64,000 bases of DNA from Obrimoposthia wandeli. Lineage: Eukaryota. The notes under the pieces were generated by a model. It did no database searches. It was not told the DNA's origin and saw only the letters and a list, made by a program, of their open reading frames with translations. The stretch covers positions 310,001 to 374,000 of the forward strand of contig CDROCS010001889.1 in the NCBI GenBank assembly GCA_977020255.1, in the 5' to 3' direction. Positions 1-25,989 of this stretch are shown here, piece by piece (the first letter of the stretch is position 1; every line of letters starts with the position of its first letter). A program made the position numbers and the translations under genes.

Positions 1-238
1 CCAGAGCTGGCCGATTGGGATGACGGAGGAAGATGATGGAGAAGGATGGTGGAGGAGGACGATGGAGAAGGAATCGCGACCACTTTCCTGTTCGGTACCT
101 TGATAGGTTAAACCAATTATATCCTTATCTCCCATTTCCACATGCACCCGTCATCTCCTTGTCGAGCCTGGCAAGGTGAAACTGGTTAAGCCGGTTGGAG
201 ATTAAAATCCTCCTGATTACTCTAATGCCAAAGTGCAT
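1..238 (-). pseudogene. 5' part of RING-like cargo gene family member (copy 1, cut by window edge)
   Basis: ATG at 238: MHFGIRVIRRILISNRLNQFHLARLDKEMT, then a frameshift into VEMGDKDIIGLTYQVPNRKVVAIPSPSSSS; paralogous to 10384-11098. Confidence 0.6.
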
Positions 239-2733: not shown

Positions 2734-2734
2734 C

Positions 2735-3370
2735 ATATTTAATAAATTTTGGTTTATTTTCTTATTTGTATTTCAATTTGGTTTGAAAAATTATTTAAAA
2801 CATACAAATATTTTTGATCAACAACTATGATATATTAACTTTCTAAAACTTAAATAAAATAATATTCATATGATAAATGATTTTTTTGTATTAATTTTAT
2901 TGTGACTGATTTCACATCATAAAGATTGACAGTGAAGACTCGAGTCTTGTTTTAAACGATGAAAGTAAATTTGTTCTATTTAAATTAAAAATTTCATATT
3001 TGCATTTTCAAATATTCTCAAAATGTAACCATATAAACAACTGAAACTATTTGACGTATTGAGAAAACAGGAATTGAGCAAAAATAATAATTTTATTTTA
3101 TTGTATTTTATAATTATTACAAATATAAAAGAAAATTTTACATAGTTAAAAGATGAAATTTGGGTATGTTTCATGTCAGTCTTCAAACAAATAGTCATTG
3201 TACTTAGGCTATTATTTTATTTACAAGTGTTCTAACGAATGTAAACATCCGCTTTCTATCAGCAGAATGCAGAAATAGATAATTGTGACATACTTTATTA
3301 TTAAAATGACTATTTGTAAATGATTTAACATAGCAAATAAGATGGTAAATTAATTTAGAAAATACTTTTT
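2735..3370. repeat. Repeat B, partial copy
   Basis: Near-identical to ~370-1005. Confidence 0.95.
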
Positions 3371-3371
3371 A

Positions 3372-5034
3372 CTCTATTTTGATGATGGTTAAAAATAAGA
3401 AATCTTGCTAAAAATATAAAACATCCTAAGATTAAATTCCATGTTAATCCACCAACTTTATAAATATAGTAAGTAAATAAAATTTGACTTAGAAGAATTT
3501 TAAAACAAATTAATAGAGCAAATATTCCAACTTATCCAGAAAATGCTTGACCAAAATTTAAAAATTTTACCCATATTTTTGACATAGTGTTTTAAGTGGC
3601 TTTTATAAAATGATTTGGAGAAAGTAATAAGTCGTAATCGGGATGGCTAATTCCGTCTGGTACCGATCTTTTTATGATTTATGTTAAAATTGTCGATCTT
3701 ATTTTGGGAAATAAAATGTATTTGCTTAATTTATCTATATCTTGTATGTAAATTCATTTGTGTTTAATTCATTATCTGGTTGTATATTGATGTCGTTATT
3801 GAGAGTGGTTAATTTTAATTTTAGTGGTTCTGTGACTATGTCTCTTCTTAGAAGTGAAATCTAAATATCTTTCGAAATTTGATAATGAGGTGTCATTATG
3901 TTTGAACGGTTTATTTATTTTATGCTCAATGTGTTAAAAAGTATGATTCTAGTGATTGGCTGTACAAATAATGAATGATTTTTGTAAGAAATTGGTAATT
4001 CTTTTGTACATTTGGGTGATTTATTATGTTAACTATTACTTTTTGACTGTGATAAGTGTATAACACTTCTCCCATTACTCTTCCAAAAGTACCGTCAGCT
4101 AATGGTAATAATGGTGCTATTAATTCTGGGTCAGTAGCAATAATTTCCAATTTTGTTTTTAATATTTCTTGATTTAATTTACAATCATTCATTATTGTTT
4201 CTCTATATATTGCTTATATTGTCGTTAATCCTTTGTGATAGAAATAATCTAATTTATTGTTAAAATAATCATAATTTATATCAAATTTAGTTGGTGTCGT
4301 TTTGCATTATGTATTTTCTCATTACTTATATATATTACTTTATAATTAGTTGTATAAACAGAGTGTCCACATCGGGATTTCTATTTATTTTTAATAAATC
4401 GCATTCCTGAACCTTGTTCAATGGACATTAATATAGTTGGAGTTGATGGTTTTTGTAATTTTCAAGTTCTATATCTTTTACATATGTATTTTAGAATTTG
4501 TTGATCTAGTTCCGGATCGTCTATAAATCATTTTCCTTGAATTATTTGAAAAGTTTCTAATTTAAGATGCATTCATTTACATTGATCCATTTTTACTTTG
4601 TAGTAAAGTATTAAAAAACCTGTGTTATAGTGACCTATATTTGCTTCACAAAATGTCCATGTTACCATTGTGTTTGTGAAAGGGTCGAATATTACTTTGA
4701 AAGTTCTTAATTTGACGTCAAAACTTTTAGTAACTACTAAACTTCTTTGCTTAACACCGATTACAACGTAAGTTCCAGTTGTACATTAACTATCAGATTT
4801 AATCGTACTTACAACTGATATAATTTGCTGAATTATTTTATTCTTCATTGCTCGAACTTTAATTTCTCTATCTAATCTCAATTCTCCTGTTGCAAAAGCA
4901 TCTTTACAATTTAAGGCGTCAACTATTATTGGTGTTTTTCCTAATGCAGACTTTACTATTGAATTGTGACTATGCTGTCCACGATATGTTATAAATGTCT
5001 ATACGTGTACTCTGCATTCAAAAACCTCTGCATT
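3372..5034 (-). pseudogene. env: env-like class III fusion glycoprotein (chuvirus G / herpes gB-like), main body
   Basis: Reads AEVFECRVHV*TFITYRGQHSHNSIV...NCKDAFATG...DPELIAPLLPLADGTFGRVMGEVLYTYH... and ends in a hydrophobic region FWSSISG*VGIFALLICFKILLSQILFTYYIYKVGGLTWNLILGCFIFLARFLIF. This matches the remembered pattern of chuvirus-like glycoproteins in LTR retroelements. Confidence 0.8.
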
Positions 5035-5469
5035 TGTTGGGGTTTCTATACGAAACTTGTACAGATCCTCTTATGTGCGGAGGGCCCCAACGTGAGTTCG
5101 AATAGAAGCAGGTCTTAAGTTGGTCGTGGCCTACTTAGTGTTATGGTTGCCTATCTCTCTTATTTATCTGAAGGTGTTTGGTTTGACGTCTCTTAATCTG
5201 AAGGTTCAAAACAACGTTTTCTACTGTAGGAAATCGTTTATTGGTAACACACTAAACTACAACACAACAATACGTTTATGTACGTATCTTCTAAAAAGTA
5301 TAGTAAAAATTCCTAGGACTTCTGCAAGTCTCCACTCTAGTGGGGATGAACCACGTATCGATTTTAGGTGTTAGGGTTGGTTAAGTTCTTAGAGTCTTTC
5401 CTCTAACTCGCGACTAAGCTCAAGTTATAGATTTTACGGAGCTGGTTGCTCTAATTCAAATGGTGAATT

Positions 5470-6043
5470 TATAGACAAAACAATGTTACTTCAAATTGTA
5501 AAATTCTAGACAAAACAATATTATTTCAAATTGTAACTTTAGGCAAAACAATGTTATTCAAATTGTCAAATTCTAGACAAAACAATATTATTTAAATTTG
5601 TAACTTTAGGCAAAACAATGCTATTCAATTGTCAAATTCTAGACAAAACAATATTATTTAAATTTGTAACTTTAGGCAAAATAATGTTACTCAAGTTGTC
5701 AAATTCTAGACAAAACAATACTAATTCAATTTGTGAATTTAGGCAAAATAATGTTACTCAAGTTGTCAAATTCTAGACAAAACAATACTAATTCAATTTG
5801 TGAATTTAGGCAAAATAATGTTACTCAAGTTGTCAAATTCTAGACAAAACAATACTAATTCAATTTGTGAATTTAGGCAAAATAATGTTACTCAAGTTGT
5901 CAAATTCTAGACAAAACAATACTATTTAAATTTGTAACTTTAGGCAAAACAATGCTACTCAATTGTCAAATTCTAGACAAAACAATATTATTTAAATTTG
6001 TAACTTTAGGCAAAACAATGCTACTCAATTGTCAAATTCTAGT
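5470..6043. repeat. Tandem array, ~67-bp unit (two ~33-bp subunits), ~8.5 copies
   Basis: AAATTCTAGA recurs at 5501, 5568, 5634, 5701, 5768, 5835, 5902, 5968, 6034. Confidence 0.95.
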
Positions 6044-6132
6044 CGTTTCGTCTTACCTATTTGATCTGATTGTTAAGTCCCAGGTGGAGTCTGCTGCTCG
6101 CCCGAGAAATTGTGAGTGCTGCGACGACGTTT

Positions 6133-6525
6133 GAAATCAGTTGTTGTGGTTTTGAAATCAGTTGTTGTGGTTTTTTAGATCAGTCGTTGTGATTTTGAAA
6201 TCAGTTGTTGTGGTTTTAGATCAGTCGTTGTGATTTTGAAATCAGTTGTTGTGGTTTTAGATCAGTCGTTGTGATTGACAATCAGTTGTTGTGGTTTTAG
6301 ATCAGTCGTTGGGATTTTGAAATCAGTTGTTGTGGTTTTAAATCAGTCGTTGGGATTTTGAAATCAGTTGTTGTGGTTTTAAATCAGTCGTTGTGATTTT
6401 GCAATCAGTTGTTGTGGTTTTAAATCAGTCGTTGTGATTTTGAAATCAGTTGTTGTGGTTTTAAATCAGTCGTTGTGATTTTGCAATCAGTTGTTGTGGT
6501 TTTAAATCAGTCGTTGTGATTGACA
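6133..6525. repeat. Tandem array, ~41-bp unit, ~9-10 copies
   Basis: GAAATCAGTTGTTGTGGTTTTAGATCAGTCGTTGTGATTTT repeated without spacers. Confidence 0.95.
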
Positions 6526-7124
6526 ATCCCGAAGCGACTCTAGAATAAGGAATCAATAAAATTGAGACACACTAAATAAATCACCTGTTCTGCTGCTCCG
6601 CTCTTTTTTCCTCGTTGTAGTTTGGTATTTTCCCCGTGTGTTTCGATTGCCAATTTAGTGGACTTATATAGACTGCTTTCACCTGGCAATCTGCTAGACA
6701 AATAAATTAATCGATTGCACCAAAGTGTGCTTACCCTTGATTTCACCTGGCGAGCTAAGATTGAATTCTTGGATCTGCTAGGCAAATAAATTAATCGATT
6801 GCACCAAAGTGTGCTTACCTTTTGCTGACGTTGGCAATTTTCTTCAGCAATTAACTTTCTTTAATTAACTTTCTTTTTTCTTTTTTGCTTGTTTGCTGAT
6901 TTGTCTTTTTTGCACTTTTAGTTAATTAATTCTAACCTTATATACTACACACTATACACGACCTTCGTGGTCCTCCTAATATTTATTCTTATCTTAATTT
7001 CAATAATTTTAGTTTTGAATTTTAAAATTAATATTTTATTTAATTTTCAACCTTGCTTTCAAGGATTTTTATTTTAGTATAAATTCAACTAATTATTTTA
7101 ATTTTTTAATTCCTAAACCTAACA

Positions 7125-7345
7125 CATTTAGAAAACCTGTTTCTTGATATACTTGATAGAATTTAGTATTTTTAATTTTAACCTCATTTGGGTCAGAGTC
7201 TGCACATTTTTGTAAATCCATTAAAGAATATTTATTTTGAATTTTATATTTTGAACAGTTATATTCTAAAGCATTAATTGGTTTTATCATGTTCATAATT
7301 AGACATATTGTTAATATTATTTGTATAATTTTCTGTAAACTCTGT
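7125..7345 (-). pseudogene. env: env N-terminus with signal-peptide-like segment
   Basis: IIQIILTICLIMNMIKPINA-LEYNCSKYKIQNKYSLMDLQKC...VYQETGFLN; continues in frame at 5034 after removing the insertion. Confidence 0.8.
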
Positions 7346-7539
7346 AAAATTTTGTTGAAATTATTTTTATTTTTAAAAAAAAATTATTTGTAACTTTTTG
7401 ATGTTTTTCGTTTTTTTTTTGTGTTTTTTTTCTTCTTGTGTTTCAGTAGTTTGGTTTGTTTTTGTTATTGTATATTTATTCTTTTGTAATGTTAGACAAC
7501 CATCTCTAAACATGTCTCCAAATTTGGATTATAAGTTTG

Positions 7540-9030
7540 TTATATCTGTACGCGGTTCATTGTTATGATGTTGTTGATGTATTTCTCTGTAGCGATTATC
7601 CATTTTTTTAAAAGTTGTGATTTTAATAACGCAAGTTCCTCTGTGTTTAGAGTTGTTTCTGCAATTTCAATAGTGGGTATAGGGTTTCTTGGAGTGTATT
7701 GTTGATATTGAGTATTGAATTGTACTGTTTTTTGAATTTGTGATTGCTGTTTTATTGTTGTGTTTCCAAATTGATTCATCATTGTGTTTAATTTTTTACA
7801 GTCATCGGTGTTGTGATTTTCATATTACATATCTTACAAAATGTTGTATTGTTATTAAAATATATATTTTGATTATTGAAATTATTATTCCTTGGTAGTG
7901 TATTATTACCTTGCTTATTCATTAGTTTTCTACAAGTTTCGATCGTATTATTGTCTGTTTTGCAAAATCTGCAGAATTTTATGTTATTTAATTTTCGACA
8001 ATTTTCTTTTGTGTGATTTTGGAGTCCACAATTTGTGCATTTCCGAAAAAATCTTTTTTTGTAAATTGTGAGTCTGTAAAAACTATATTTGACTGACCTC
8101 TATAAAAATTATTTGTTGGTGGTCTAAATTGTTGAAGATTTAGAAAATTATATTGAGTATCTGGGTTAAAATTTTGAGTTTGGCTGTAGTTTGGCGGTGT
8201 TTGTGATTTTTGTATTTTTTCAAAAGATAATGCTGAAACCTCGGTTTGCTGTAACATATTTAGTTTTGTTTCTACTAATTGAGATTTTCCTATATCTTGT
8301 GGAAAGTTTTCTACTTATAGTAATGCTGGGTGATCTCTAATTTTGTTATTTAATCCATGTAAAACTGATGTAAAAGTAATCGTTCTCTTTGTGCTTCTTC
8401 TATTTCGGGAAAAGATTGTAGAGCAAGTCGTCGTAATTAGACTTCGAATATATTTGTGAGTTCTCCTACATGTTGTTCTCGTTGCCTAAATTGATTTAAG
8501 TAGTTCTAGTCCGACTGTGCTCCTAAAACCATATTTTGAAATGTTTTGGACTAAATGTTCCCATTTGTCCTTTTGTACATTTGTTAGTCCTCTTTAAATA
8601 GTTAGGGCAGTGCTTTTTAGGTATGTTGGAAAAACTCTAAGTTATCTGGGTCAGTTCATTCGGATGCTTGAGCAAAAGAATCGTATATATTCAAGAATTC
8701 TGGCAACGATGATTTATCGCCATTAAATGCGTCTAGTCTATGATTTGCCATTTGAGGCACTTCGTTTATTTACTCGTTATTTATTTCTATGTTAGGTGTT
8801 ACTGGTTTTACCACTGTTTCTGTTGTTTCTGACGAGTTTTCTGAGTCAGATGTTTGTGGCAAGGATAAACTTTCTGTATCCGAATTTGACGGTAGGTTTT
8901 GATATTCTGAGTTGGTTGATGTTGATTGGTTTGTGTGTTGATTTAAAGAAGTTTCTGGAAAGAATTCGTTGAATGTTCCTGAAGTTTATCTGTGACTTAG
9001 GTCTTTGTGGTGATGTTTTGTTTGCGTTAG
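7540..9030 (-). pseudogene. gag: gag with two CCHC-type zinc knuckles, decayed
   Basis: MANHRLDAFNGDKSSLPEFLNIYDSFAQA (ATG 8751); knuckles CRFCKTDNNTIETC (~7935-7975, H>N) and CKICNMKNHNTDDC (~7800-7845); Q/N-rich linkers. Confidence 0.8.
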
Positions 9031-9048
9031 TTCTGACTAATCTAGTTT

Positions 9049-9061
9049 GAATGCGTCTCCA
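9049..9061 (-). promoter_or_regulatory. Putative primer-binding site next to the 3' end of the 5' LTR
   Basis: Minus strand reads ...GCTAGTTTTCA-C-TGGAGACGCATTC directly upstream of gag. The LTR begins at 9063 on plus coordinates; its far end was not defined. Confidence 0.6.
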
Positions 9062-10383
9062 GTGAAAACTAGCGCTACGTGTTTGTTTATTTATTTTGTG
9101 TGTCTGTTTTGTGATAGTTTGTTGGGTTTGTGTTGTTTTATGTTTTTTAAAAATAGTGATAGATGGGAAATGCGCAATGCGTAAGGGAATTCAAATATAT
9201 CTCGGTGATATACGGAAAAATTATTTTTTTGATCTCAAAATCAACTCTTTTAGCAAAATAAAAAATACGTTATCAGAAAATTTTTTTGGAGAAAATTTAT
9301 CTATTTTTGAAGTTTATTTTTATATTTTTTGTTTTTATGTTTTTTTAATTAGAAAAATGCCAAGATTCAAAAAACTTTCTCGAAAAATCTTTGTCCCTTA
9401 TCACTTTGAGCACTACCTACGTCAACCAGTATATATTCTTTAAATTGGTAGCACTTGACGCAACTTGGGAAACAAGACAGTTCGTGACAAAAATTTAAAT
9501 TTTTGATTAAATTTATATTTATTGAAAAACATTTTTTTGTTACAAATTTAATAGACAAATACACTCCAATTTGTAGTTTTCAAAAACGAATTTTATTTGT
9601 TTACTTATTTAACGGAAAAATGTGAAAATTTATTTTAAAATTAATATTATTTGAGTTGTGCCTTGTTTGTTGATTATTTTAAAAAATATATTTGTGGGTG
9701 TTCAAAACTCTGTCCTACAAGGGCCAGTTTATAGCCTTTATGAACAGAATTCCGAAAACCGAAATATTATCCTTTATTAATATCACGATTAAATTGATCT
9801 ACACAACTCAAATTACAAAAAAAAATTAGAGAATGTAAGCTGATAATATTTCGGAAGACAAAGTTATAAAGTAATTTTCAGAGATCCTAACTCACTTAAT
9901 TTATAGTTTTTAAAAATATGTAAGTAAATCACGTAAAGTCAAATAAATGTATTTGTAAAAATGACTTTTGATGTTATAATGTAAGTTTTAACGACTATGA
10001 TAAATAATATATGATCTATAGTAACAAGACTAAAACCAAATTTTATTAAAATAATTGTTTTAACTTACGAGACTTGTGCCCAAAGCTGCAAACACCTCAA
10101 CTATGTTTACTTTATATTGTACTTACAAAGCTTGTGCGCAAAGCTGCAAAAACCTCAACTACGAAAAGGTTAAGTCCTACTATTTTTAGTAAGCTATTAA
10201 AACTATTAAAACGGTTAACAAATAAATCAAACAAAATAAATCTACTTTAGACAAAATTCAGATAATTTGAGAATAGGTAGGCTACATACATCTGTAAGCC
10301 ATATCGCTATAGAACTCACATACGACGATTTTAATCAAATTTCAGATTCTAAATTTTGTGTCGATCAGTAGTCTGTATATATT

Positions 10384-11098
10384 TCAGCAGCACACATCAC
10401 CTCTAAGGAGTTTGGGACATACTTGTGTATGTGTGTACTACAGAGAAATGTGCAAATCACATGTGCAGTTTTGTATTGCAAGGCTGTAGCGTGTGTGATC
10501 ATCAAAAGTGAGGAGACATTCACGTAGCTGTACTGGTACTCGGGGAAAGAGAAAAGAGTATTGATTGATAACATGGCACAGGGAGAGAGAAGGGAACTGT
10601 AACCAGTTTTACAGCAGTTATTGTTGTGTCGCCTCCGTCTTTTGGGAGAAAATGACATTGGTTCGGCAGCTAGGGCAATAGGATCGTCGATCAATATTAA
10701 CGCACTTAAAGTGCATTGGAGTGCCTGGTGATAGTAGAAAGGGGAGATATTAAGGGAACAGATATCGGGAGAGATAATAGAAGAAAACATTGTCACCCCG
10801 ATCTGCAACTCCAACATCGCTGCAACGTCAAGGCAGTAACATAATGGTAGTAGGAGATTGTCATCCGAAGCTGGCCGATTAGGATGACGCATGAAGATGA
10901 TGGAGAAGGATGGTGGATGATGATGTTGAAGGAACCGTGACCACTTTCCTGTGCAGTACTTTGATAGGATAAACCAATTCTATCCTTATCTCCCATTTCC
11001 ACACGCACCGTCATCTCACTGGCGAGCCTGGCTAGGAGAAACCGGTTAAGCCGGTTGGAGATTGAAATCCTCCTGATTACTCTAATGCCAAAGTGCAT
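10384..11098 (-). pseudogene. RING-like Cys/His cargo gene (copy 2), frameshifted with stops
   Basis: MHFGIRVIRR...GDKDRIGLSYQ. A shifted frame contains MHFKCVNIDRRSYCPSCRT (~10716-10660) and ECLLTFDDHTRYSLAIQNCTCDLHISL*YTHTQVCPKL. Confidence 0.55.
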
Positions 11099-11934
11099 TA
11101 ATGAATTAACTACTTTTAATTATAGTCCATGTCCAATTGAGGAAATATTTAATATTTTCAAATATTTTGTTTTAACTTTTTCCGAACATATATACAAAAG
11201 AAATTCACTTTAACAAAAAGGTTTTTTATATTTAATAAATTTTGGTTTATTTTCTTATTTGTATTTCAATTTGGTTTGAAAAATTATTTAAAACATACAA
11301 AATATTTTTGATCAACAACTATGATATATTAACTTTCTAAAACTTAAATAAAATTCATATGATAAATGATTTTTTTGTATTAATTTTATTATGACTGATC
11401 TCGCATCAAAAAAATTGACAGTAAAGACTCGAGTCTTGTTTTTAACAATGAAAGTAAATTTGTTCTATTAAAAATTAAAAATTTCATATTTGCATTTTCA
11501 AATCTTCTCAAAATGTTACGATATAAACAACTGAAACTATTTGACGTATTGGGAAAACAGGATATGAGCAAAAATACTAATAATTTCATTGTATTTTATA
11601 ATTATTACAAATATAAAAGAAAATTGTACATAGTTAAAAGATGAAATTAGGGTATGTTTCATGTCAGTCTTCAAACAAATAGTCATTGTACTTAGGCTAT
11701 TATTTTATTTACAAGTGTTCTAACGAATGTAAACATCCGCTTTCTATCAGCAGAATGCATAAATATATAATTGTGACGTATACTTTACTATTAAAATTAC
11801 TATTTATAAATGATTTAACATAGCAAATAAGATGGTAAATTAATTTAGAAATACTTTTTTTTATAAAATAACTTTTAAAAGTAGTTATAAAGTAATATAG
11901 TTATAATCTTCGTTCTTAGTTGTTTGATTTGATT
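10865..11934. repeat. Repeat unit A+B, copy 2
   Basis: Colinear with 1-1090. Confidence 0.95.
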
Positions 11935-12521
11935 ATATCGAGTCACCATGATTTTCCAAGGTCCATTGAGTTCCACTAAGAATCACAGAAATTCTTGGAA
12001 TATTTGAACATTGTAACGTGTAAGAACGATTATATTACTGCAGTTTGTCGGCAGTTAAATACGGTTTTCTAATTCTTATGGTGCTTTCAAATCTTGCAGA
12101 AGCTTACTTCGTTGTTCATTTGGTGTCAATGAATTTAAAACGCTCATTATCTAAATATGGTTTGGTATTGTCATTACTGTGCTACTCTACTCTTTATTTT
12201 TTAACAATAATGAGTAATTATTTATTTGAGAATAAACCTCTAGTAGGTGGATGTGTCCGGTCAAATCCAGCCCCTTTAAAACCGTGCATGTGTGTGGAGT
12301 GAAATTTTGTTTATGTGTGTGGAGTGTCATTTTCTACCCTCCCAACACTCAAAAACTAATTAACCCCATATAACACCCTTTAAAATTGAAAATCTCATAG
12401 TGCTCCCCCAGAGTGAGGAAGTGTCTGAGAGGCGGTGGCCTGACGAGCAATACATATATACAGGGTCGCGAAAACAGGTCGTGAAACAGGATAGGTGATC
12501 TCGATGTTCACCGAAGAAGTC

Positions 12522-12726
12522 TCAAAACTCCTTCTCCTCCATTGTTCTGCAGAAGGGACAGACGAAGAATTGAAGCCCATGAGACTTTGTCCGATAGTAG
12601 GCGGACATTATCTCAATGCAGGACTCTCCTCCATGCGTTGCCGAAGCACAACAATAATGGGTTACATGTAATCTAAAATTAAATATTAATAAAGAAATAA
12701 AAAATAAAGTTCCTTACCATAGTCAT
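12522..12726 (-). pseudogene. Tiny spliced gene encoding a half-RING-like peptide
   Basis: TATA at 12767-12774; ATG ACT ATG, then a 45-nt GT-AG intron (12717-12673); with one frameshift it reads ITCNHYCCASATHGGESCIEIMSAYYRTKSHGLQFFVCPFCRTMEEKEF*. Confidence 0.45.
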
Positions 12727-13549
12727 TATTTTAAATAGTCTGAGATTTAAATGAAGAAAGTGTTTGCTTATATACTAAAATTTATGCACACATGCTCTTT
12801 TCTTATTGGATGAAAAAATTGAATTTATTTCTCTACTGAGACGGATTTTTTATCTGTTATTGGTTGATAATATTATTGTTTATATTTTTTATTTCTCCAA
12901 TTAAAAGGCTTATTTGTAATTGGATGAAAAATTTATTTTGTAAATAATGAATTTCTCCAATTAGAAGAATTGTTTATCTACCTGTCAAGTAATAATAAGA
13001 TGGACTTAAACATTTTTTATATGCGCAATGGTCACCATGATCACTATATGGACAGCAAATATTTTGCGAAATTTTTAATAGATGATCACTTAAAATATTT
13101 AAAGTATTCAATCTCAAATTTGACAAATATTTTTTAAAGTCTTATACTTTTTGCGATCCATTTCATCTAAAACATAAAAAAAATCCATTTTCAATATCAA
13201 AATTAGATTTAATGGTATCGAAAATACATATTTCACAAAAAGCCTTATGTCCTTCTTTCCATTTTAATAAATGAAAATAATTAGTTTGATATAAATTAGT
13301 AAATTTTTTCTTATAATCTAAACTCCTAAACGGGATATCTACATGAAATATGAAATGCAGAGAATGACAAACGTTGCATATATCCATAATACATAATTCT
13401 TTTATAATATAATCCCCATTTTTTTTAATGAAAGCCTCAAAGTTTATGATATATTCTTGCCTAATTACACATATAAGTGTTGGGATATTAATTAAAAGAA
13501 ATAATTAATTTTTAAGTCAATTTAAATTGACATTTAATATTTATCAAAA

Positions 13550-14340
13550 ATGCCAACAATTTGGGAGGTTTTCAAGTTCAGCCTCCGACGGGGTGGTCCC
13601 GTTTCGCCTTGCCAGGCTCATCAGGAAGGCGGCTAGTTAATTGATAAAGATAAGAAAGTGGTTTTTACCACCAAAGTTTTCCGCCCAGCTCCTACCACCT
13701 CTCCAATCAAACTCTTCCTCTTTTGCCAATTCTGCTGCTGCGAGGATTTCCGCAGATATTCTCGTGTTTCCTGATCGCAGTCGTCAGCAGCATTGACAAC
13801 GACATGCAGACACGGATCGATCTAGATCAGCAGTGGCAGCAACAACAACTGCTACACTCGCAGAAAGTCCGGATCCCAGACTGTCAATTCCCCTTCCACT
13901 ATCTCGGGCAGCTCTAGATCTCTCCCTGCCAACTGCACTGTTGTCGGCGGTTCCTCCCTGATACCAGCACTGCCCATCGGCTTCTTGGCCAGCACAGTTT
14001 TTCTTCAATCATCCTTCACCGTTTCCCTCAGCTGCACATGTGTGTGGGCCGGGGATTATTGGTTTTCCCCATCTTCCCAAATTCTCTCTCTATCAGAGAA
14101 GATCTCTCGGACACACACTCACCTGCCCAATGCCCGCCTGTCTGTGCTAGACCGCCGAATCGTGACCTTATCAATATTGGAGTTATCTCTGGACATGACG
14201 TCCTCCTCAATCGGTTCCAGTGTGGCCAACCAGATCAGCAACAACTTCCAATAATGCCTGACACAATTATTATCATCTCTGGCCTATTCAGTAGTTGCCT
14301 TGACACATCGATTTTACAGTGTGTGTGTCTCTCTTTCTAG
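13550..14340 (+). pseudogene. Cys-rich cargo gene (family copy 3), decayed
   Basis: AAAAATG start; shares CCTTGCCAGGCTC...GATAAG with the other copies; residual motifs IPDCQFPF, HTLTCPMPAC, FQCGQPD in shifting frames. Confidence 0.45.
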
Positions 14341-14479
14341 ATGGAATTTTTCAGCGGCGACATTTGACAGTGATGGCCGATTTATCCCATATAAAACAGT
14401 AGAGTTACAGCGAGACACCACGCATTTCTAGTGACTGTAGGAAAATTTTGACAACAATTTCCTGTGCAAAAGTATTGAA

Positions 14480-14685
14480 TATTATCCAAATATATTGAAA
14501 CTGATATTGACTATTATCCAAATATATTGAAACACAATTGTCTGAATCTATCAATCCGCAGAAGCTAAAATATATAACCCTTTTTGCGAAGCGATATTGA
14601 CTATTATCCAAATATATTGCAACTGATATTGACTATTATCCAAATATATTGAAACTGAAATTGAACCTTATCCAAATATATTTTC
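14480..14685. repeat. 32-bp tandem repeat in two blocks
   Basis: GATATTGACTATTATCCAAATATATTG(A/C)AACT, ~5 copies. Confidence 0.9.
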
Positions 14686-15125
14686 CCTGGAACCTGTTAA
14701 CATAAGTAACAAATCCCTTTGTTTATAACGAATCAAAATAAGAAACCATTAATTAAAAATTTATTATAATATCAAAGTACTCAGGATTCATTTATCTCGT
14801 TAAGATTGGTACACATTTTCAATTCTTCTATGAATATTAAAATAAATTATATTAAATGTAAACATACCTAAATATTTTGAAAGTAAATTACATATTTTAT
14901 CTGCAACAATTTCCGGAGTATCATTTTTTGAGAATTTTTTTTTTCATAATCTTCCATTAAATCTGTAGATAATTTAATGTATAATTTATTCCAATTTATT
15001 TTATCATCCATTTTATAAAAAAACATAATATATAAAATTGTTTAGATTTAGTATGCTTATGTAAAATATTTAGACAATTATGAAAACACAAAAATAATCA
15101 ATAAAGCCAAAAGAAAAAATATTTT

Positions 15126-15425
15126 TCATTCAGCTTTAATCTGGCGGATTCTCTTTCTTACAGATCGCCGATTGTCCTCCATCTCCTCTTCTCTTTTTTC
15201 ATCCAGTTTATTTTTTTCCAATTCAATCTTTTTGATCCACTCCACGATCCGTTTTCGTTCTGCTAGCCGCCTGTCTTGAATTTCGACCCGACGATTCCAC
15301 TCGGTCGCGACAGCAGCGTAGAGATTCTGATTGAGGACCCTCTTTCTTAAATCTCCTTTCTTCTCATTTCTCCTGATGTTTTCTTCAATCTTCGTCACTA
15401 GACTTTTCATTTTAATGAATTCCAT
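15126..15425 (-). CDS. Intact 99-aa charged coiled-coil-like protein, unknown function
   Basis: Uninterrupted E/K/R-rich ORF; AAAAAATG context; TATA-like run ~40 nt upstream; higher GC than the flanks. Confidence 0.6.
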   Translation of the reverse strand: MEFIKMKSLVTKIEENIRRNEKKGDLRKRVLNQNLYAAVATEWNRRVEIQDRRLAERKRIVEWIKKIELEKNKLDEKREEEMEDNRRSVRKRIRQIKAE

Positions 15426-15759
15426 TTTTTAATTATGAAGAGGTTAATAAATTTGAACCTATATATATATATAAATTTAAGATATTTTTAATCCAATCAC
15501 ATTCAATTAAATGATATATTTTTATTTATCAAATGACAGTTTAATAAATTTATAACTAATAATTGCATTTCTATTTAAACCTAAAAATTTTTAATGTTGA
15601 ATTATTCCTAATTAATCCAATTACATTCGAATAAGTTAACTATTTTTTCATCTTGATATTTTAATTAACTTAAAGATAGTATTTTAATATTTCTAAATTT
15701 GTAAAAGAAATTTAAAGTTTTTTAAAATAAATATAAAGAAGAAAAAGAAACATATGAAA

Positions 15760-17355
15760 TTATTGTTTATAAATTATATTTTTAAAAATCTTTACAAAGT
15801 CATCATTGGAATCATCCTCATCGATATCCCGCCGACTGAGTTTTATTGGAGGAAGCGGTACTGGCTCCTTCTTCTTTGGCCGGTCATGTTTCATTTTCGG
15901 CTTCACCGGTTGTTGTCTAACAATTGCCGTTCCCTGAGGTTTTGGCAATAGTTGCCACAACGTTTTGGGAGGAGGTGCAGCCGATGTTGATGGCCCGACA
16001 TAGAAGTAGTAGCTTTCCTCTTCCTTGGAGCTTTCTTCTGTTTCTCCTCCTTCTCACGCTGAAGCTGGCGTGAGACGGCATCCTGTTGCCCTCGCGAATC
16101 TGGAAGAATTGTCGGTGTATCCAGTTCCGCCAGGAATTCATCCAATCCAGCTTCATCTCAGGCCCTCTTCAAGTTCTGGCTGGTTGTTGGACGAGGAGAA
16201 GCAGTCTCCCAAGCCCTAGCCAAATTTTGACTGGTATCCAATGAAGCCGATGATGTTTCCTGTAGGCGTCGTTGACTTGGTGGCGGACTAATCTCGATCG
16301 GTGAGACTGGAATCCTCTCGTATAGAATTGGCCCGTCGTCCACTGGAGATGGGAGAATCTTCTGCCGTCCAATCACCGCCTCAGCAGAATGTCGAATTGT
16401 GGTGAAACATTTTCTCGAGCGCTTCGTCTTCTTCACATCTGCTCGCTTCGTCCGTTTCTTGGGGAAAGGAGTAATTTCTCCCAAGTCTCCTCAATTATCC
16501 GGACGGATTCCTGCAAAAGAAAACATTAATAAAATTCATTTATTTAAAAAATATATAAATAACTAAAAATCTATCTCAATAATCTGATACGGAAGTTTTT
16601 CCTGCCGCTCTATTGATACTTCAGTCGATTTGAGCAGACAAGATTTCGCCTTTTTAAAGCGCCTCGTCTTCCGTACAGCAGCCCGCTTCGTTCGTTTCTG
16701 CGGGAAAGGATAAATTTTGCCTCATGTCTCCTCAGTTTATTGTATTAGTTCCTGCAACAAAAAACATCAATAAAATTTAAACATATAAATAATTTACCTC
16801 AATGACGGGCAAGTTAGCCTGTTTCACAAACTTGGCCTTCTTCCGATGGACCGTGTGAATTTTGACCTGATGGCGTCGAGGTTTCTTAACCGCCGCTTGC
16901 TTCCTATCAACGGGTAGTCTGAGAGTTGCCTCCTCCAAAATTTCCTCCACTAATTCGGCTTCCTATGTGAATAATTAAAATTATTATCTAATTTATAATA
17001 ATTTACCTCAATTTTATCCGGAGTCGGTAGGTATCGCTGCTCACTCCTGGGATCATTCTAGCTACATTGACTCGCCAAGTACTGCAGTTCAATCAGCCTA
17101 TCCGCCGTGGTCAGTGACGGTGCCAAATCCAGTTGATGTTTCTAAAAATGAAATTAAAAAACATTTTAAATAAATTAATAGACTAACCTCATTCGTCGCC
17201 TTTATTCTCCTAACAGGACGTATTGGAGATTGCGGCTTTCTGAACGGTTCAGGCATCGTATTGTCGGTTATCGGAGTTGGAGTTCCAAAGGGAGTGAGAC
17301 CATCCCAATCGTCGGTGAACAGGTGCCACTCATCTTCGTCCAATTCTGCCACCAT
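15760..17355 (-). pseudogene. Five-exon gene for a basic, Pro/Ser-rich disordered protein, inactivated
   Basis: Exons 17355-17188, 17141-17007, 16962-16798, 16751-16575, 16510-15760; introns 46, 44, 46, 64 nt, all phase 0; in-frame stops, frameshifts, and the last donor mutated GT>AT. Confidence 0.75.
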
Positions 17356-17394
17356 CGACTCGTTGGCTCCTGAGGCTCCGATACTTGGCTGTAT

Positions 17395-17890
17395 CCATTT
17401 GATCAGTTTTCAATAGTATATTTAGTCTCCGGCAATTGTGAATCCCCCAAATAAATAGAGATAATATATTTTTCCTGAATCCCACAAATAAAATTGATCA
17501 GTTTTCAATAGTATATTTTGTCTCCGGCAATTGTGAATCCCACAAATAAATAGAGATAATATATTTTTCCTGAATCCCACAAATAAAATTGATCAGTTTT
17601 CAATAGTATATTTTGTCTCCGGCAATTGTGAATCCCACAAATAAATAGAGATAATATATTTTTCCTGAATCCCACAAATAAAATTGATCAGTTTTCAATA
17701 GTATATTTTGTCTCCGGCAATTGTGAATCCCACAAATAAATAGAGATAGTATATTTTGTCTCCGGCAATTGTGAATCCCACAAATAAATAGAGATAATAT
17801 ATTTTTCCTGAATCCCACAAATAAAATTGATCAGTTTTCAATAGTATATTTTGTCTCCGGCAATTGTGAATCTCACAAATAAATAGTTAT
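17395..17890. repeat. 95-bp tandem array (~5 copies, one with a 47-bp internal duplication)
   Basis: GATCAGTTTT at 17401, 17496, 17591, 17686, 17828. Confidence 0.95.
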
Positions 17891-17991
17891 GAAATTTTTT
17901 GTGGAAATTTCTGTATTGCTTTATTTTTGTAGAGCCTGACAGAAATCATGCTGTTATATATGTCAGGGAAATAAAACTGTTGTGCAGACTT

Positions 17992-18715
17992 TTACCAGTC
18001 GATGATCGAGACTGGGCATAAACAAGTGCATCTGTTACAGATGTGTGCGTGTAACATTGACAAAGTCGGCACACAGACCGGGAGGAGAGAGAGAGTTGTG
18101 TCAATTCTGGCTGATGTTGATAAATCCCTCTTTGATAGGAAAGGAGGTAGCGTTATACCTTTTCTCTCTCTCTCTCACACACACGCACACACAAAAATGT
18201 TTAGTAAAATGTTTGCAATGGCGACTTGCATAATGATAGGAGGAAACCGATGAGGCAATAAATGAGAGGGATAGGTGCAGCACACAAACACAGCCGTTGT
18301 TGTTGGTGCTGAAATAAGTGGCAGCACCTGTTAGAGAGGAGAAACTGCTAAGAAGTCCATCATCTTCGTCATCTTTGGGGGAGAGAAAACCGGACTGCAT
18401 CCGAGGAAGGCAGTCAGGACAGCGGAGGTTGCCGAGCGATGAAGGTATGGAAGGAGGTTCGGCGAAGATGGTCAGGAATTGTGGAGTGGCGCTGATCCAT
18501 TGATCAAGGCAGCTGGACCAGACCTGTCGCTGGCCGAGAAAGGGCAGACCGCCGCCGCATCCGCTGTTATTGCTGGGCTGAAAAATCTTTGGTGGTCAAA
18601 ACCACTTCCTTATCTCCATCAAAAAAAACTAGCCGCCTTCCTGATGAGCCTGGCAAGGCGAAACGGGACCACCCCGTCGGAGGCTGAATTTGAAAACCTC
18701 CCAAATTGTTGGCAT
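17992..18715 (-). pseudogene. RING-like cargo gene (family copy 4), decayed
   Basis: The 5' end is an inverted near-copy of the 13470-13640 region; residual motifs LRCPDC, LCLCAAPIPLIYC...FLCVRVC, HAHICNRCTCLCPVS. Confidence 0.5.
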
Positions 18716-18754
18716 TTTTGATAAGTATTAAATGTCAATTTAAATTGACTTAAA

Positions 18755-19312
18755 TTAATTATTTTTAATTAATTTCCCAACACATTCATCGATGAATGGA
18801 GTCAAGTCCTCCTCCCCATCATACGGTACGTCATCGGTGAATAGCTCCTCGTCTGAGTCTGGTGCGAGTACTATCTCCGGCTGAGACAGCGGGATCAATT
18901 TCCAAAGGCGTTTGATTGCCGCCTTAAAATTGTTGAAGATATTGGATCTCCTTGCTGCTACTGCTGAAGTTGCTGGACGAGTGGCTTCTGTGTTCTGCCG
19001 GGGAGTACAGTCTTCCCAATTCTCAATCGAATCTTGACTAGGCAGGTTGATATATTGGGATCTCTGTATCCCACCTCTCGCATTCATTGGTACTTCTCTC
19101 GGAGTTGAGCTGGCCAATGGCGATACTTCTAGTAACAGCTTCGCTCTTCCTGCTGCTTCTCCTTTGTCTCCTTTGTTCACCACCGACGAGTCTTGACTAA
19201 GTAAGTCAATGTACTGCGCCGGTGGTGGCGTTCGCTGCTGTACTGGAGAGAGATCCCCATACAGTTGAGCCTCCATCTCTTCGTCTAGATCAACGTTGTT
19301 GTAGAATGGCAT
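18755..19312 (-). CDS. Intact 185-aa acidic/Pro-Ser-rich, probably disordered protein
   Basis: MPFYNNVDLDEEMEAQLYGDLSP...; TATATAAG at 19359-19366; internal repeat QYIDLLSQDS / QYINLPSQDS. The ORF track's upstream start at 19420 lies upstream of the TATA and is probably not used. Confidence 0.65.
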   Translation of the reverse strand: MPFYNNVDLDEEMEAQLYGDLSPVQQRTPPPAQYIDLLSQDSSVVNKGDKGEAAGRAKLLLEVSPLASSTPREVPMNARGGIQRSQYINLPSQDSIENWEDCTPRQNTEATRPATSAVAARRSNIFNNFKAAIKRLWKLIPLSQPEIVLAPDSDEELFTDDVPYDGEEDLTPFIDECVGKLIKNN

Positions 19313-20046
19313 TGTTGATTTATGATTTTGATTTATGAAAAATAAGGAAAGAGGTTTCCTTATATACAAAAAACAACAGACTAACCCTCTTTTGTCGTTT
19401 AATGAGAGTGGGTTATTCAAATAATTTATTTGAAACTCCGTAGGCTTTTCTCAATTTTTCAACTACGTTTGAATGCGGGAATGTCATTGGATAAATAAAT
19501 ATTTCATTCGAAAATAGAACTATTTTCTTAAGTTTTTTTTGACTGAGTTCAATGTCCAATAAGAGTGTATTATTCAAATAATTTATAGTATTTTCTTAAT
19601 CTTTGTTGATGATTGAATACATGTATATCTGTGGATTTAAAATAGTAATATTTTCTTGACTGTACATGTTTGGAGGGTATAATGTAAGAAAAACTAGCCT
19701 TTTGAATGTATATGGATATAAATTATAATAAGGAAACTTTTTTCGCGACCCTGTATATATGTATTGCTCGTCAGGCCAATGCGGGCCCGAAGGGCACGCG
19801 TTGACCCTTAGATGGCCTTTCAGGCCATTCCTCACTCTCGGAGAGCACTATGAGATTTTCAATATTTAAGGGTGTTATATGGGGTTAATTAGTTTTTTTG
19901 AGTGTTGGGGTGGGGTAGAAAATTTCACTCCACACACAAACGAAATTTTACTCCACACACATGCACGGTTTTAAAGGACAGTGGTACCCCCGGGGGAGGG
20001 GGTGGATTATACCGGACACATCCACCTACTATCTCTTTCTCTGGTT

Positions 20047-21231
20047 TGTAGTATTTAGTGTTGGTACTAACTCAAAACAATAAACCACAGCGGGTAAGGC
20101 TTTGTTGCTTTGAGTTAGTACCAACAATATAGGCCTTTAAATGTCTAAATATAGTCAAAATAACGTACAAAGTAGTCAAAATGATCAATCAATTCTCGAA
20201 ATCGTGCATATGACGCCAACGGTAATAGATCCGCCCTTTGCTGCAAAACTACTTTGGTGTCATATGCATGATTTCAAGACTTTTTCAAATATTGCGTAAT
20301 TTCCTACGGTTTAAACAAAGATGATGATTTTAAGTGACCATTGTCTCCCTTGCGGATCCTCCTAAGAGGGAGCCATTCATCCGAAGACCGAGCAGTACCT
20401 TTGGCAAAGAATATATTAAATGTATATTTTGTTCATAATAAAAAGACGATAAAACTAAAATCAATATATATTAAACTTTCTTTTGTCCTTCTGTAATTCT
20501 TCATATAGGCTTCTGTCTCCCGAGCTTATCGACTTTGAATCCTTGAATTTGAACGAATAAAATCCAATATTTTCTTTTGTGAAATTCTTCTTCAGAGTAA
20601 TTATATAATCCATAGATTAGATTTTCATCGGCTCTAAGGAAAGTACTAAAGTTTTCATTTTTAATATCCAACTTCATTCCTTTGAAAATAGCAAATAATA
20701 TTATTAATATCCGTATTGTGGATTCTCGAGATGACATAATCAAACTTGGATTTTGTTAGTATAACAGGTTATAGAATTCCATAAGTAAAATGTGTCTTGA
20801 AGAAATTCATTGGATAGCTGAAATTAGGTACAGCTTCATTAAACATGTTTTCATTGAAAATATCTTCTAATTCTGATACATCATCGTAATCTATGTGGAT
20901 TGCGTTAACCTTGGTTGCATTTAAAATTCCATTCTTTGTCTTTTTCGTGGTCTCCAAAATCGGTTTTTGTAAATTGAACATAATTAATGAGAAAAAACTG
21001 AAATGTTTTGATAGTTATAGTTGACTACTTGAATCTGATGGTTGTTGATTATCATTGGATAATATGAAACTATATAAGTCTGTGACACCATCAATCACAT
21101 AAGGAAAATAATCAATATAAATTATAAAGATAAATTTAATGGAAGTGTTGGTCACTTCCCTTTTCGATCAAAGAAACATATACAATATGTTGAAAAGGTA
21201 AAGGATTATACTAATGTTATATTTCCATCAG

Positions 21232-21277
<46 letters not shown>

Positions 21278-22650
21278 TCTTATTACTATTTAGGCTCATG
21301 CAGGATTATAGGTTGCAAACAACCAATCAAACATGCTCAAAATATAGAAATTGAACGTATTTAATCTCTAAGTATCCTAGTGAATATCAACAAGAAGGTT
21401 AATCTGTATAAGATATCTATTAAAATGGGAAGAAATTGTATGTTTGATCCAGAATTGTTTCCAGCACTCAGAATTTTAAAGTTTAATACTCTATGTGTTA
21501 ATGTGTTTGGTAGGTAAAAAGTAATAATTCATGGTATAAAGGTTTTGATTACCATTGTCATGTTGAGTCTTTTGTATTTTTTCTTGAATGTTTCTTAAAA
21601 ACAAATATATGTTTTTCGCTTTTTGAAAATGCTTATTGATAATATACTTCATTATACTACTGTTAATAATGTTTTAGTTAAACGAAAAATAGAATATTCT
21701 AGAATAAAAGTTTTACATGTGAAATAAAGACATGAAAGTGAAAGATTGAAATCATTATTTATAAATTATAAAGGGAAACTATATAAAAGTGGTTTAGCTA
21801 AAGCCGGATTTTATAAACATGTTGATAATTTAACCGATAAATTAAAATGTATATTATCATTTGTAAACACATTCAATCATTTGTATATAATAATACAACG
21901 TTTGTGTTTAATCGCTTTATTTATTATATAGAATTAATTTGATTATTAAGGTTTTTATTTAATCGAAACACTTTAGTTTTATAATCATTTCATCATTATG
22001 GCATCAAGTACTTTCCATATGTTATGTGCTCTTTGCATCAATATTAAAAAAGACATTTTCAAAATATATGCATCTAGCAAATTTTTTATTATATTGTGCT
22101 CTGGAACTTTTCGAAGATAGGATATTAAAACCTTTTCTATACTACCATAGTAAGGTTTCATTTTTTAAAAATTTAACATACATTTAATAGCTATGGGAGA
22201 TATTCAATATTGTGATCACATGAAAAAATGATTTTTAATTGTATATTTATTTTTATTATTATACTTTAAATTTTTTCAAGGCCAAATGTGTTGCCCGGTC
22301 TTCGGATGAAGGACTCCCTTCTTAGGAGGCTCCACAAGGGAGACTTTGGTCACCTTATTTTTTTTAAACCGTGGGAAATAGCGCGATATTTAAAAAGTCT
22401 TGAAATCGTGCATATGACGCCAAAGTAGTTTTGTAATAAAGGGTACTTCCCCATGGGGCCTATTTCCGTTTGCGTCATATGCATGATTTTGAGACCAAAT
22501 TTAGGTCAAACCTTGAAATCGCGCTTACTGTCTTAAATATATTTTGCAGTAAAAGGTACCTCCTGGGGCGGGGATAGTGGCATCGTATGCAGGATTTCAA
22601 GACTAAATTTAGGTCAAGTCTTGAAATCGCGCATACTGCCTCAAATAAAT
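20047..22650. mobile_element. Second TIR element (AGTAGT-type left end) with palindromic subterminal repeats
   Basis: Left arm 20047-20405 starts TGTAGTATTTAGTGTTGGTACTAA; inverted copy at 22281-22650 (outer end missing); 1.9-kb AT-rich core with decayed ORFs. Confidence 0.7.
21377..22161 (-). pseudogene. Decayed tyrosine recombinase resembling nudivirus/baculovirus VLF-1
   Basis: MKPYYGSIEKVLISYLRKVPEHNIIKNLLDAYIL; LSCLYFTCKT (where TG-x-R is expected); KHFQKAKNIYL; TKHINT*SIKL*NSE; KHTISSHFNRYL with H-to-Y spacing of 9 codons, as in the VLF-1 motif NHESSASTKHYL. Based on remembered sequence only. Confidence 0.45.
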
Positions 22651-23579
22651 TTTACACTAAAAGGTCCTTATTAAAAAGAAATATTAGTAAAGTATTTTAA
22701 GTATATTAATATTATTATTTTTTGAAATTACAAGTATTTTATCAGAACCTTTTAATTTTATAAAACAAAATTGTTTTCACATAGCATAGTGTGTATTATT
22801 ACGTAATACATTCCTTACACGAGAAGAGTGAACTTTGACTTAAATTTTCACATAGCGTAACTGATTGATTACTGTAGATGTGTTTGGTACTTTAATATTT
22901 TATTTTAAAAAATCTGTTAAATCAAAATTTGTTTAACTTTAACAAAAAATAACAAATTAAATTGGCACAAATTAAAATTTCAAAAATTATTATTTTCCAC
23001 CAGCATCTCTTAATTTTATTAAACAAAATTGTTTAATTACATTAATAAAATTAATAAAAAAATGCGTAAATTTAAATATTTATAAAAAAATAATGGTAGT
23101 AAAGTATTTTGAGTTTGTTAAACATTTTTCCTTAATAGTTATTTTAAATAATGTTATTTTAATATTTTATTTTAGAAATCCGTTAAATAAAAATTTGCTT
23201 AACTTTAACAAAAACTAACGAATTAATTTGGTATAAATTTAAATTTGAAATATTTTTATTTTTGAAATTACAAGTATTCTTATTTTTCACCAGGACTTCA
23301 TAAGGTATGCATGATTATAAGAGTATGGTTGAACTCAATTTTGATAGACAAATACAACCATGTAATAAAATTATCATGTTTGTTCCAAATCTGACCCTTA
23401 ACTTGTGGAATTTTACATGATTAAACGCACAATATTTTGACAAACACAACCATGTACTTAAAACTTTGAAATTCAAACTGTTTTCAACCTTTCATCTATG
23501 GTTGGCTATACCTTTATGGATGAATTCGTATTTTAAAGATGATTCAAACCATGTACAAAAATATTGATATTTTAAACTT

Positions 23580-23898
23580 GATTTTGTCTTCATTTATGGA
23601 CGACCACAACCCTTTAGATGTGATGGCCAACCATAGCAGACCTCAACCATATCTTCAAACCTTCAAGTCAAAACTGAGTCTGACCCTAACATATATGGAT
23701 GACCACAACCCCTTGGGTATGTTTGTCGATCATAGACGTTCATGTTCATATCTTCAAACCTTCATAACCTTTCCGAACCAGATCCCTTGTGGTGTGACAC
23801 ATATACTCTTATGGTGTGACATCCTTATGGTGAGACAACATATACTCTTATGGTGTGACATCCTTATGGCGAGATAACATATACCCGTATGGTGTGAC
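23580..23898. repeat. Two ~100-bp repeats plus 39-bp tandem repeats
   Basis: ATGGA(C/T)GACCACAACCC...ATATCTTCAAACCTTCA twice; ATACTCTTATGGTGTGACATCCTTATGG repeated. Confidence 0.85.
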
Positions 23899-24296
23899 AG
23901 TAGTATATAGTGTCGGTACTAAACCAAAGGAACAACAAATGTATAGTCATTTTTTAGACAGAGTGTCCTTAAATGACTTAAATGGCTTAAATTGACTCAT
24001 CAAGTCTCAAAATCCTGCATACAACACCAAGTCAGGTCTGGTGTTGTATGCAAGATTTTGAGACTTGACAAATCACGCATACTACGCCAAAGGTAATAGG
24101 TCCTCCCCGGGGGTACCCTTTACTGCAAAACCATATTGGTGTTGTATGCAGGATATCGAGACCATTTTCAAATATCGCACTATATCTTACCGTTTAAAAC
24201 AAAAGTAGATTAAGTAGATTTTTAGTGATCAAAGTCTCCCTTGCGGAGCCTCCTAAGAGGGGAGCCCTTCATCCGAAAACCGGGCAGCACCTTTGG
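23899..24296 (+). mobile_element. Left TIR of a third element, same family as 20047-22650
   Basis: Starts AGTAGTATATAGTGTCGGTACTAA; colinear with 20047-20405, including the CCTCCTAAGAGGGGAGCC...CATCCGAA block; partner TIR not found. Confidence 0.75.
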
Positions 24297-25989
24297 CAAA
24301 GATTATATTTTATATTACTTTTGTTTATAGTAAACCTTAAAAAAAAATCATTTAAAATCTTGCAAATCGTTCAAAAGGATATTGATGTAATGAATGACAT
24401 TTTCAAAAAGATGAAAAGTTTTATAACTATTGGCAATAACATTTTTCATGGAAATGTTAATTTATTCAAAGACAAGTTTTGTACCGGCCTCAAATGGATA
24501 TTATATGTACAACATGTACAATATAAGGCGAAAAAAAGTTATGTTGTTTGAGAAAGTACGCTTTAAACTCTTAACTTAACGATATTAATAATATTTGATA
24601 GACTTTTACTTATATTGTACCAGTACTAAAATGCATTATATTGGATTGGTAGAAAGTTTTTTTTGCAAAATGTCAACAAAATAATTTGTGTTTACTTCAA
24701 TTATATTTCCTAATAATGAACTAATTATTTTATAACTATGTTGAAGAAATTCCTATCACATTTGGAAAAGAACTCTTTGACAAAGTTTTCATCTTCGTAA
24801 TTCATACAAAAACATTTTACTATTCAGACTATTTTGTGTAGACCAAAAATGTGGTATTTACTAGGTTCTATATCAGGAGAATTTTGTGGATGTTCCATTA
24901 ATCTCATTTGTAATGCTCGAAGGTGTTTACATATTTAAATTCTTACATGTATCCCAGCCTTATTTTGGGGTAACAAAACATTTTTTCATTTGATCACGAA
25001 GTCTTTTTTCATTTAAAGATTTTTCCATGTTGTATAACAAGGAAGAATTTATATTAGAATTAATCATTTAATTAACCTCCAATACCTTCTAGTATCTTAT
25101 TTTTTATCCCACTACACACAACATTACCTTATTAACAGTGAGGTTTTATTTTGCTTCAGTTTGAGGACTTTGATACCTTTCACAACTGTTTTTCTTGGGA
25201 TTATCAAATTTGATGCATTTTTACTCGGTGTTACTATTCTGTAAATATACTTATCTTTAGCATTTAGTCAAAATATTGATGCACGTACTTACCCGATCAA
25301 CAAAAGTTTTCTCACGTAACACATATGGAACTCTCATCGCATAATTTCTTTATCATGTCAATAGATTTTAAACCATCAATTATGCACAGAATAAACATTT
25401 AAATGTTAATGCCAATTATCTAACCGTTATATGTCTACCACTACGTACTGCGATTTTACAACTTATTTTGTCCAAAATCTTTGGTTCGAACATTTGTAAG
25501 CATTTTCATATCAAAAATATTTAACTTAATTTGAGGACCATATCTGTACTACACGAGAACTGACGAAATTTGTCCAAATACTTCATTTATTCTTAAATCG
25601 ATTTCATGATTTTTTGTACCTCTCTTAAATTCAAAGTATATAAAAGCCTTAAATCGGAGCTGATCGTTTTACATTATGTGAATGATTAAAATATTATAAC
25701 GTAAATTCATAAATTCACCTTTAGAATGTAATTCTAAATAAGTAAAATCACAAACTTTAGAGTTGATTTGAAGATAAAATAAAATTTCGGTTTTAATTAT
25801 GCAACAAACGCTTTTAACAAGCCAATATTATTAAATAAATAACAAACAAAAAAGATTTTTTATAATATTTTATATTAAAAACGGTAATCAATTGATCATA
25901 GGAAATATAGCGTATCTAAAGGAAGGTGAATGCGATAAATCGAGAGAGAGAGCATGTGTGTCGTATTTGTGGAAAGATCAAGGAAGTCG

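Follow-up and report, generated by a model that had tools for sequence, protein, structure and literature searches.

The closest described relatives of the element studied here are Mavericks or Polintons of the adintovirus type, which have AG-type termini, 6-bp target site duplications (TSDs) and a length of about 17 kb, and which combine pPolB, rve integrase and A32 ATPase genes with capsid-like, protease-like and PW/Adintoc-like genes and flanking accessory genes (PMC8097293, PMC8502044). We analysed a 64,000-nt stretch of the Obrimoposthia wandeli genome (assembly GCA_977020255.1, contig CDROCS010001889.1, positions 310,001 to 374,000; hereafter the window), which contains a 7,789-bp element at positions 12242-20030. 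The element derives from a parent family in the same genome that shares these features, but unlike the described Mavericks it has lost the core genes.

Vertebrate Mavericks, also about 17 kb long with accessory flanks, are defective in 96% of copies and number on average 22 and at most 287 per genome (PMC8097293), far under the ~8,900 end pairs implied for O. wandeli, although the counting methods differ. Maverick expansions are on record for the giant isopod, where they make up 5.08% of the genome (PMC9107163), and for flatworms (10.64898/2025.12.11.693146), while 'oncoid' CxxC genes upstream of PolB and TBP-like genes are known in print (PMC8502044) and a mael-linked polinton group has been named (10.1101/2025.02.07.637071). 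None of these features, whether defective copies, accessory genes or large expansions, is therefore new to Mavericks. Non-autonomous Polintons were reportedly named in the original descriptions, and our search of the literature on non-autonomous, deleted, template-switched and miniature Mavericks, with subscription journals, Repbase and preprint supplements outside its scope, found no paper on copy-back Mavericks or on miniature copies of the kind described below. Copy-back or snap-back defective genomes of linear DNA viruses have one end duplicated in inverted orientation, have lost the core and need a helper; the element has the same geometry, but is a chromosomal insertion. The polB-lacking polintons of butterflies (10.1101/2025.02.07.637071) resemble it in the absence of polB and in carrying nested transposable elements, which are their cargo, but represent several related insertions, whereas the element is single-copy, has no core genes and probably received its long terminal repeats (LTRs) after insertion. 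Nematode Mavericks with wasp and krma cargo are similar in that genes with introns occupy a region of 2-5 kb close to one of their ends, but there the cargo is a host-type toxin or kinase moved between species (10.1101/2022.07.12.499685). The end genes of our element, in contrast, either are known from other Mavericks or lack relatives in hosts and databases, and show no sign of being effectors.

The element starts with AGTAGG and ends with CCTACT, and thus has AG-type terminal inverted repeats. It is flanked by ACCTCT (12236..12241, plus strand) and ATCTCT (20031..20036, plus strand), a 6-bp TSD of which 5/6 positions are identical, a match expected at about 1% by chance from random pairs of local flank sequence. 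The left arm (12242..12476, plus strand) is a Maverick terminus of the accessory-side type and an inverted duplicate, with two small gaps, of the right terminal ~290 bp, while the right terminus (19737..20030, minus strand) is the parent's natural accessory-side end; the two arms are homologous over 236 and 294 bp respectively, and mismatch at 16 of 231 aligned positions. A sequence-only reading of the window had already recognised a Maverick with a 6-bp near-TSD and terminal repeats of 230-290 bp starting with AGTAG. The near-TSD, ends and arms are real and the Maverick origin is borne out by full-length relatives with the same termini, but the arms exceed the true end homology of the family, the two ends being homologous over about 82-123 bp only in the five full-length copies measured.

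The terminal 20-mer has 17,727 exact matches (8,973 + 8,754) in the 1.35-Gb assembly and none for the reversed control, which implies ~8,900 end pairs; several lineages have these termini, and the count spans more than one Maverick family. Among 25 neighbouring plus/minus end pairs from the first 100 ends listed, the 6-bp TSD is perfect in 18, matches at 5/6 in one, at 4/6 in one and at 0-2 positions in five, the last being probably mispaired or inverted, and both of two further end pairs (2/2) have a 6-bp TSD. The full-length relatives with the same termini and arm are 15.8-17.5 kb long and encode pPolB (PF03175), rve integrase (PF00665), an A32 ATPase (PF04665) and a TBP-like protein (PF00352, E 1.7e-11); helpers have thus existed in this genome, as had been supposed. 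Further ORFs (open reading frames) of the parent, named by position and known motifs, are presumably capsid-like, protease-like and PW/Adintoc-like genes, and the major and minor capsid-like genes gave no Pfam match. The parent's accessory genes have TATATAAG promoters. Introns are apparent in its pPolB and accessory genes, whereas the core ORFs of intact vertebrate Mavericks are intronless (PMC8097293). About 4.8 kb of the element is collinear with one end of the full-length Mavericks: it aligns to 4,733 of the 17,513 bp of the natural copy C12a, at one end only and with 79-88% identity, and its substitution distance to the nearest copies compared is 6-8%. A dual-specificity phosphatase gene (PF00782), present in a different Maverick lineage of the genome, is a candidate for true accessory or cargo status.

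The defining feature of the element is a junction at 12474..12480, where the left arm runs directly into the interior of the pPolB 5' exon and where ~12 kb of the parent is gone, comprising the rest of pPolB, the protease, capsid, integrase, ATPase and TBP-like genes, and the far end. This junction is private, with one exact match in the genome, and when 40 of 1,692 candidates were scored, only the element itself yielded a junction-spanning stretch; a set of copies with one internal structure and different TSDs was not seen. End types were examined in 18 elements, many of them not typeable at both ends, and the copies typed normal at both ends (C12b, C10a, C8a and C5b) combine an accessory-side end with a far end in 4/4 cases. 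Both ends of the element are accessory-side, so that the left arm repeats the right terminus in inverted orientation, which is the copy-back geometry. Compared with 33 other accessory-side ends, the arms show 8 left-only and 11 right-only differences and 2 shared common variants, but no shared private mutations, so that duplication and insertion are of about the same age.

The element is thus a decayed single-copy Maverick fragment, which has lost its core and whose cargo consists of the parent's own genes. We consider it likely, with a probability of roughly 0.6, that it is a dead-end defective Maverick (Polinton) genome which arose by template switching during protein-primed replication and was then integrated in trans, and the geometry and timing read from its sequence would fit a copy-back defective genome. 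Starting from one terminus, protein-primed strand-displacement synthesis would have switched to a template within its pPolB 5' region and continued outwards to that same terminus, giving a molecule with two functional ends and without polymerase, integrase or capsid. This molecule was likely integrated by the integrase of a helper, giving the 6-bp TSD, and decay and two solo LTR insertions would have followed. Weighing against this reading are the imperfect TSD (5/6), the genome-wide junction search, which found no sister copy showing replication of the element's molecule, and the finding that 90/120 junction clusters, in 79 stretches, are private. Likewise, in the runs of one sample, possibly the source, a 31-letter rule yielded no contig across the inner junction, and no empty site, which the sequence-only reading had proposed to look for, was found in the genome or in that sample's contigs, where there was no informative joint. 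The right-flank matches turned out to be termini of another Maverick family, with the left flank present in 0/14.

The strongest rival explanation is that a full-length Maverick was inserted and soon lost ~12 kb by host double-strand-break repair templated on its right end. A break in the left terminal repeat, with break-induced copying from the right end and microhomology joining, would be expected to give the same sequence and TSD, and the sequence would not by itself separate a template switch in replication from a repair event soon after insertion. Such repair agrees with the retained TSD, with the private status of the junction and of most junction clusters, and with the short near-repeat at the junction (GAAAACAGG / GAAACAGG), which is typical of templated end joining. 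On the other hand, the arms have no private mutations in common, so the event is confined to a time close to insertion, while arm duplications, terminal fold-back hairpins and miniature copies with perfect TSDs recur genome-wide, and some gene-breaking junctions are common to separately inserted copies. We regard repair soon after insertion as possible but less likely than template switching.

With regard to these rearranged copies, both ends of one (C4a) are of the far type, its 3.6-kb arms are 99% alike and its TSD is perfect, and copies with a kilobase-sized inverted duplication of one arm were also seen (C11b and C1618). A fold-back hairpin of ~140 bp, centred on GAAATTTC, is found at one terminus of many longer elements, and its 30-nt palindromic centre is present at 4,384 sites in the genome. 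When 15 of these sites were sampled, in nine the hairpin formed one end of a longer element and six were minis of 161-201 bp, which are palindromic, consist of the two terminal ~90 bp only, and have TSDs matching at 6, 6, 6, 5, 5 and 2 of 6 positions. Seven mini pairs account for 14 of the first 100 ends listed, from which we extrapolate, rather than count, roughly 1,200-1,750 minis in the genome. Shared deletions were found as well: one pPolB deletion junction is present in three copies (two on one contig, one on another) among 40 scored of 257 candidates, and a capsid-gene deletion is common to two copies 45 kb apart. The three copies with the pPolB deletion are ~94% alike, have different flanks (TSDs of 6, 6 and 4 of 6) and each carry further private deletions. 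Because this junction is common to three separately inserted copies, dependence on a helper is plausible, and the shared deletions suggest that helpers took part in copying defective genomes, while gene conversion between copies may be another source of them. It is quite possible, although we would stop short of calling it probable, that O. wandeli harbours a fossil swarm of Maverick defective-interfering genomes, formed by deletion, copy-back and fold-back down to ~180-bp minis resembling MITEs (miniature inverted-repeat transposable elements), replicated and integrated in trans by helpers, with the 7.8-kb element as a copy-back member.

The sequence-only reading had instead favoured a gene-carrying satellite or Pack-like Maverick, propagated without autonomy and bringing its own cargo of at least six compact genes with TATA boxes, some of them with introns, possibly including RING-like effectors of the ubiquitin pathway. 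Several of its observations hold: the Maverick ends and near-TSD are present, helpers exist, and searches of the element by tblastn with the core proteins of the parent family detected neither the catalytic part of pPolB nor an integrase, ATPase, capsid or protease, so that of the core set only the pPolB 5' zinc-finger exon is left and the element does not qualify as an autonomous Maverick. Predicted TATA boxes lie 40-50 nt 5' of two ATGs, GT-AG introns are present, and the arm genes are real, although not as six independent genes. All non-LTR genes recur, with their order unchanged, in full-length copies and belong to the parent's standard accessory end, so that no captured gene foreign to the autonomous parent was found; one gene is the start of pPolB, and exons of another had been counted as separate genes. 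With the junction present once, most of the genes broken (the coiled-coil ORF alone is free of stops and frameshifts), the supposed RING finger part of pPolB and one third of the length made up of nested LTRs, a propagated satellite with its own cargo is very improbable.

The arm genes were assessed by omega, calculated from variant counts in 17-33 copies per gene in the assigned frame, with shared and single-copy variants separated. Shared-variant omega is 0.15-0.45 for every arm gene, compared with 0.27 for pPolB and 0.44 for MCP, which argues that the arm genes are real Maverick genes. Single-copy variants are nearer neutral (omega 0.4-1.2, with 0.6-1.2 in frame 0 for two non-coding controls), and these variant patterns indicate purifying selection in the family and near-neutral change in single copies. 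A Pfam scan of 13 ORFs in the window gave nothing above the cut-off.

The likely 'RING-like' gene of the sequence-only reading corresponds to the truncated 5' end of pPolB (12477..12726, minus strand; TATA at ~12774-12767), with a 9-nt first exon, a 45-nt intron and a CCHC+C2H2 zinc-finger exon, which contains one stop and is ended by the junction. The Cys/His pattern of the ORF at 12726-12477 (C-C-H-C followed by CxxC...HxxH) is kept in other Maverick lineages of the genome. In a full-length copy, the predicted GT-AG phases would run the zinc-finger exon in frame into the pPolB ORF, and finger and pPolB N-terminal region are fused in one protein in 3/27 database relatives (E 3.5e-11 to 2e-23), all of which identifies the Cys/His-rich ORF, as judged from sequence, as the cut-off start of pPolB. 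A RING E3 ligase was rejected, as the C3HC4/C3H2C3 cross-brace is absent and RING models score weakly in 1/5 members, under the cut-off (E 0.11-0.27). A weak resemblance to HACE1 (E 0.03) was dismissed as chance, the PDB sequence searches otherwise giving no significant match, and a single-sequence fold (pLDDT 43) was set aside. An Atlas search with the finger returned no match of at least 0.9, and a homologue search with the 213-aa zinc-finger-plus-acidic ORF returned none within the length limits. This N-terminal finger is not covered by any Pfam model; in relatives it forms tandem arrays, with at least 25 stretches in P0011.

Next to it lies a mael-like (Maelstrom/DEDD-fold) Maverick gene (12977..13462, minus strand), overlooked before, which is decayed, with no start codon and two frameshifts, and for which 10 relatives were found. 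The protein of a natural copy was modelled with pLDDT 80, and its best fold matches are Maelstrom in the PDB (E 3.5e-4) and an adintovirus protein (E 3e-6), so that the model supports a predicted DEDD/RNase-H-like MAEL fold for the 13462-12977 gene. A small two-exon accessory gene of ~60 aa (14780..15011, minus strand) is frameshifted and weakly supported, its shared-variant omega of 0.45 resting on 7/3 changes only. The gene for a coiled-coil-like basic protein of ~100 aa (15126..15425, minus strand) has a shared-variant omega of 0.15, and its database homologue search found no relative within the length limits. The remaining 'disordered' ORFs are exons of one five-exon low-complexity accessory gene (15760..19312, minus strand; TATA at ~19364-19357; shared-variant omega 0.30-0.42), which is divided by the second LTR, carries stops and frameshifts and had no match in a Pfam-only scan. 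Its exon 1 (19312-19030, minus strand) contains two YIDL(L/T/P)SQDS repeats, retained in a more distant lineage, which resemble SUMO-interacting motifs and are candidates only.

Two nested segments make up 2,608 of the 7,789 bp. The first (13478-14702, plus strand; TG...CA, TSD TAAG) belongs to a ~13-kb Gypsy-like retrotransposon and contains a 32-bp minisatellite, and the second (17400-18782, minus strand; TG...CA, TSD CATT) contains a 95-bp minisatellite; they are of one superfamily, with the first ~211 bp 91% alike. Related LTRs are paired, 97-99% alike, around gag, env-like and RT/RNase H/integrase ORFs at 3/3 loci fetched, and by these sequence features both segments are classed as solo LTRs of a Gypsy-like retrotransposon. 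Other copies of the arm join straight across both segments, the sites being empty in 18/18 matched copies for the first and 19/19 for the second; since no other copy with LTRs at these sites was seen, they probably arrived after the element's insertion. The ORFs within them were dismissed as Maverick cargo and are the retrotransposon's own. The LTRs of the ~13-kb Gypsy-like elements have only the first ~211 bp in common, and between gag and pol these elements have what we take, from known motifs, to be an env-like ORF, and near the 3' LTR presumably an exonuclease-like ORF. Positions 1-11890 of the window are filled by a decayed retroelement of similar layout.

That the element is an assembly chimera of two Maverick copies is hardly credible: despite the extreme repetitiveness of the family and the lack of a listed contig across the inner junction, the flanks match at 5/6, each arm has its own mutations, and a contig of single-copy depth reaches from the left flank through the first 30 letters of the element and agrees with the assembly throughout.

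Other Maverick remains were found in the window. A fossil with integrase, PW/Adintoc-like and ATPase pieces at 49600-51335, the PW-like piece being on the opposite strand, had been taken as a sign of helpers; it is a true Maverick fossil, but its proteins are only 34-52% identical to those of the parent family, and we rejected it as the element's helper since it belongs to another lineage. A second, older Maverick (20047-21541) with an AGTAGT-type terminus starts ~10 bp to the right of the element's TSD and contains TBP-like and La-like remnants (28-48% protein identity); the terminal hairpin of this second family is at 20047-20130, and a further AGTAGT-type terminus lies at 23900. Other inverted repeats, at 59011-59176, 60352-61113 and 22268-24310, comprise a perfect hairpin with 83-bp arms and arm pairs of 71-86 bp.

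The element itself is of little weight, being one decayed copy among thousands, but it cautions that the long 'terminal inverted repeats' and 'cargo' of Mavericks can arise by rearrangement and nested LTRs. Maverick replication has so far mostly been inferred from gene content, and the swarm, if true, would provide direct genomic evidence of protein-primed strand displacement with template switching in Mavericks, and would mean that ~90 terminal bases are enough for integration. Integrated copy-backs, hairpins and minis with perfect TSDs would then constitute a natural record of polymerase errors, of the minimal cis-signal and of riding on helpers.

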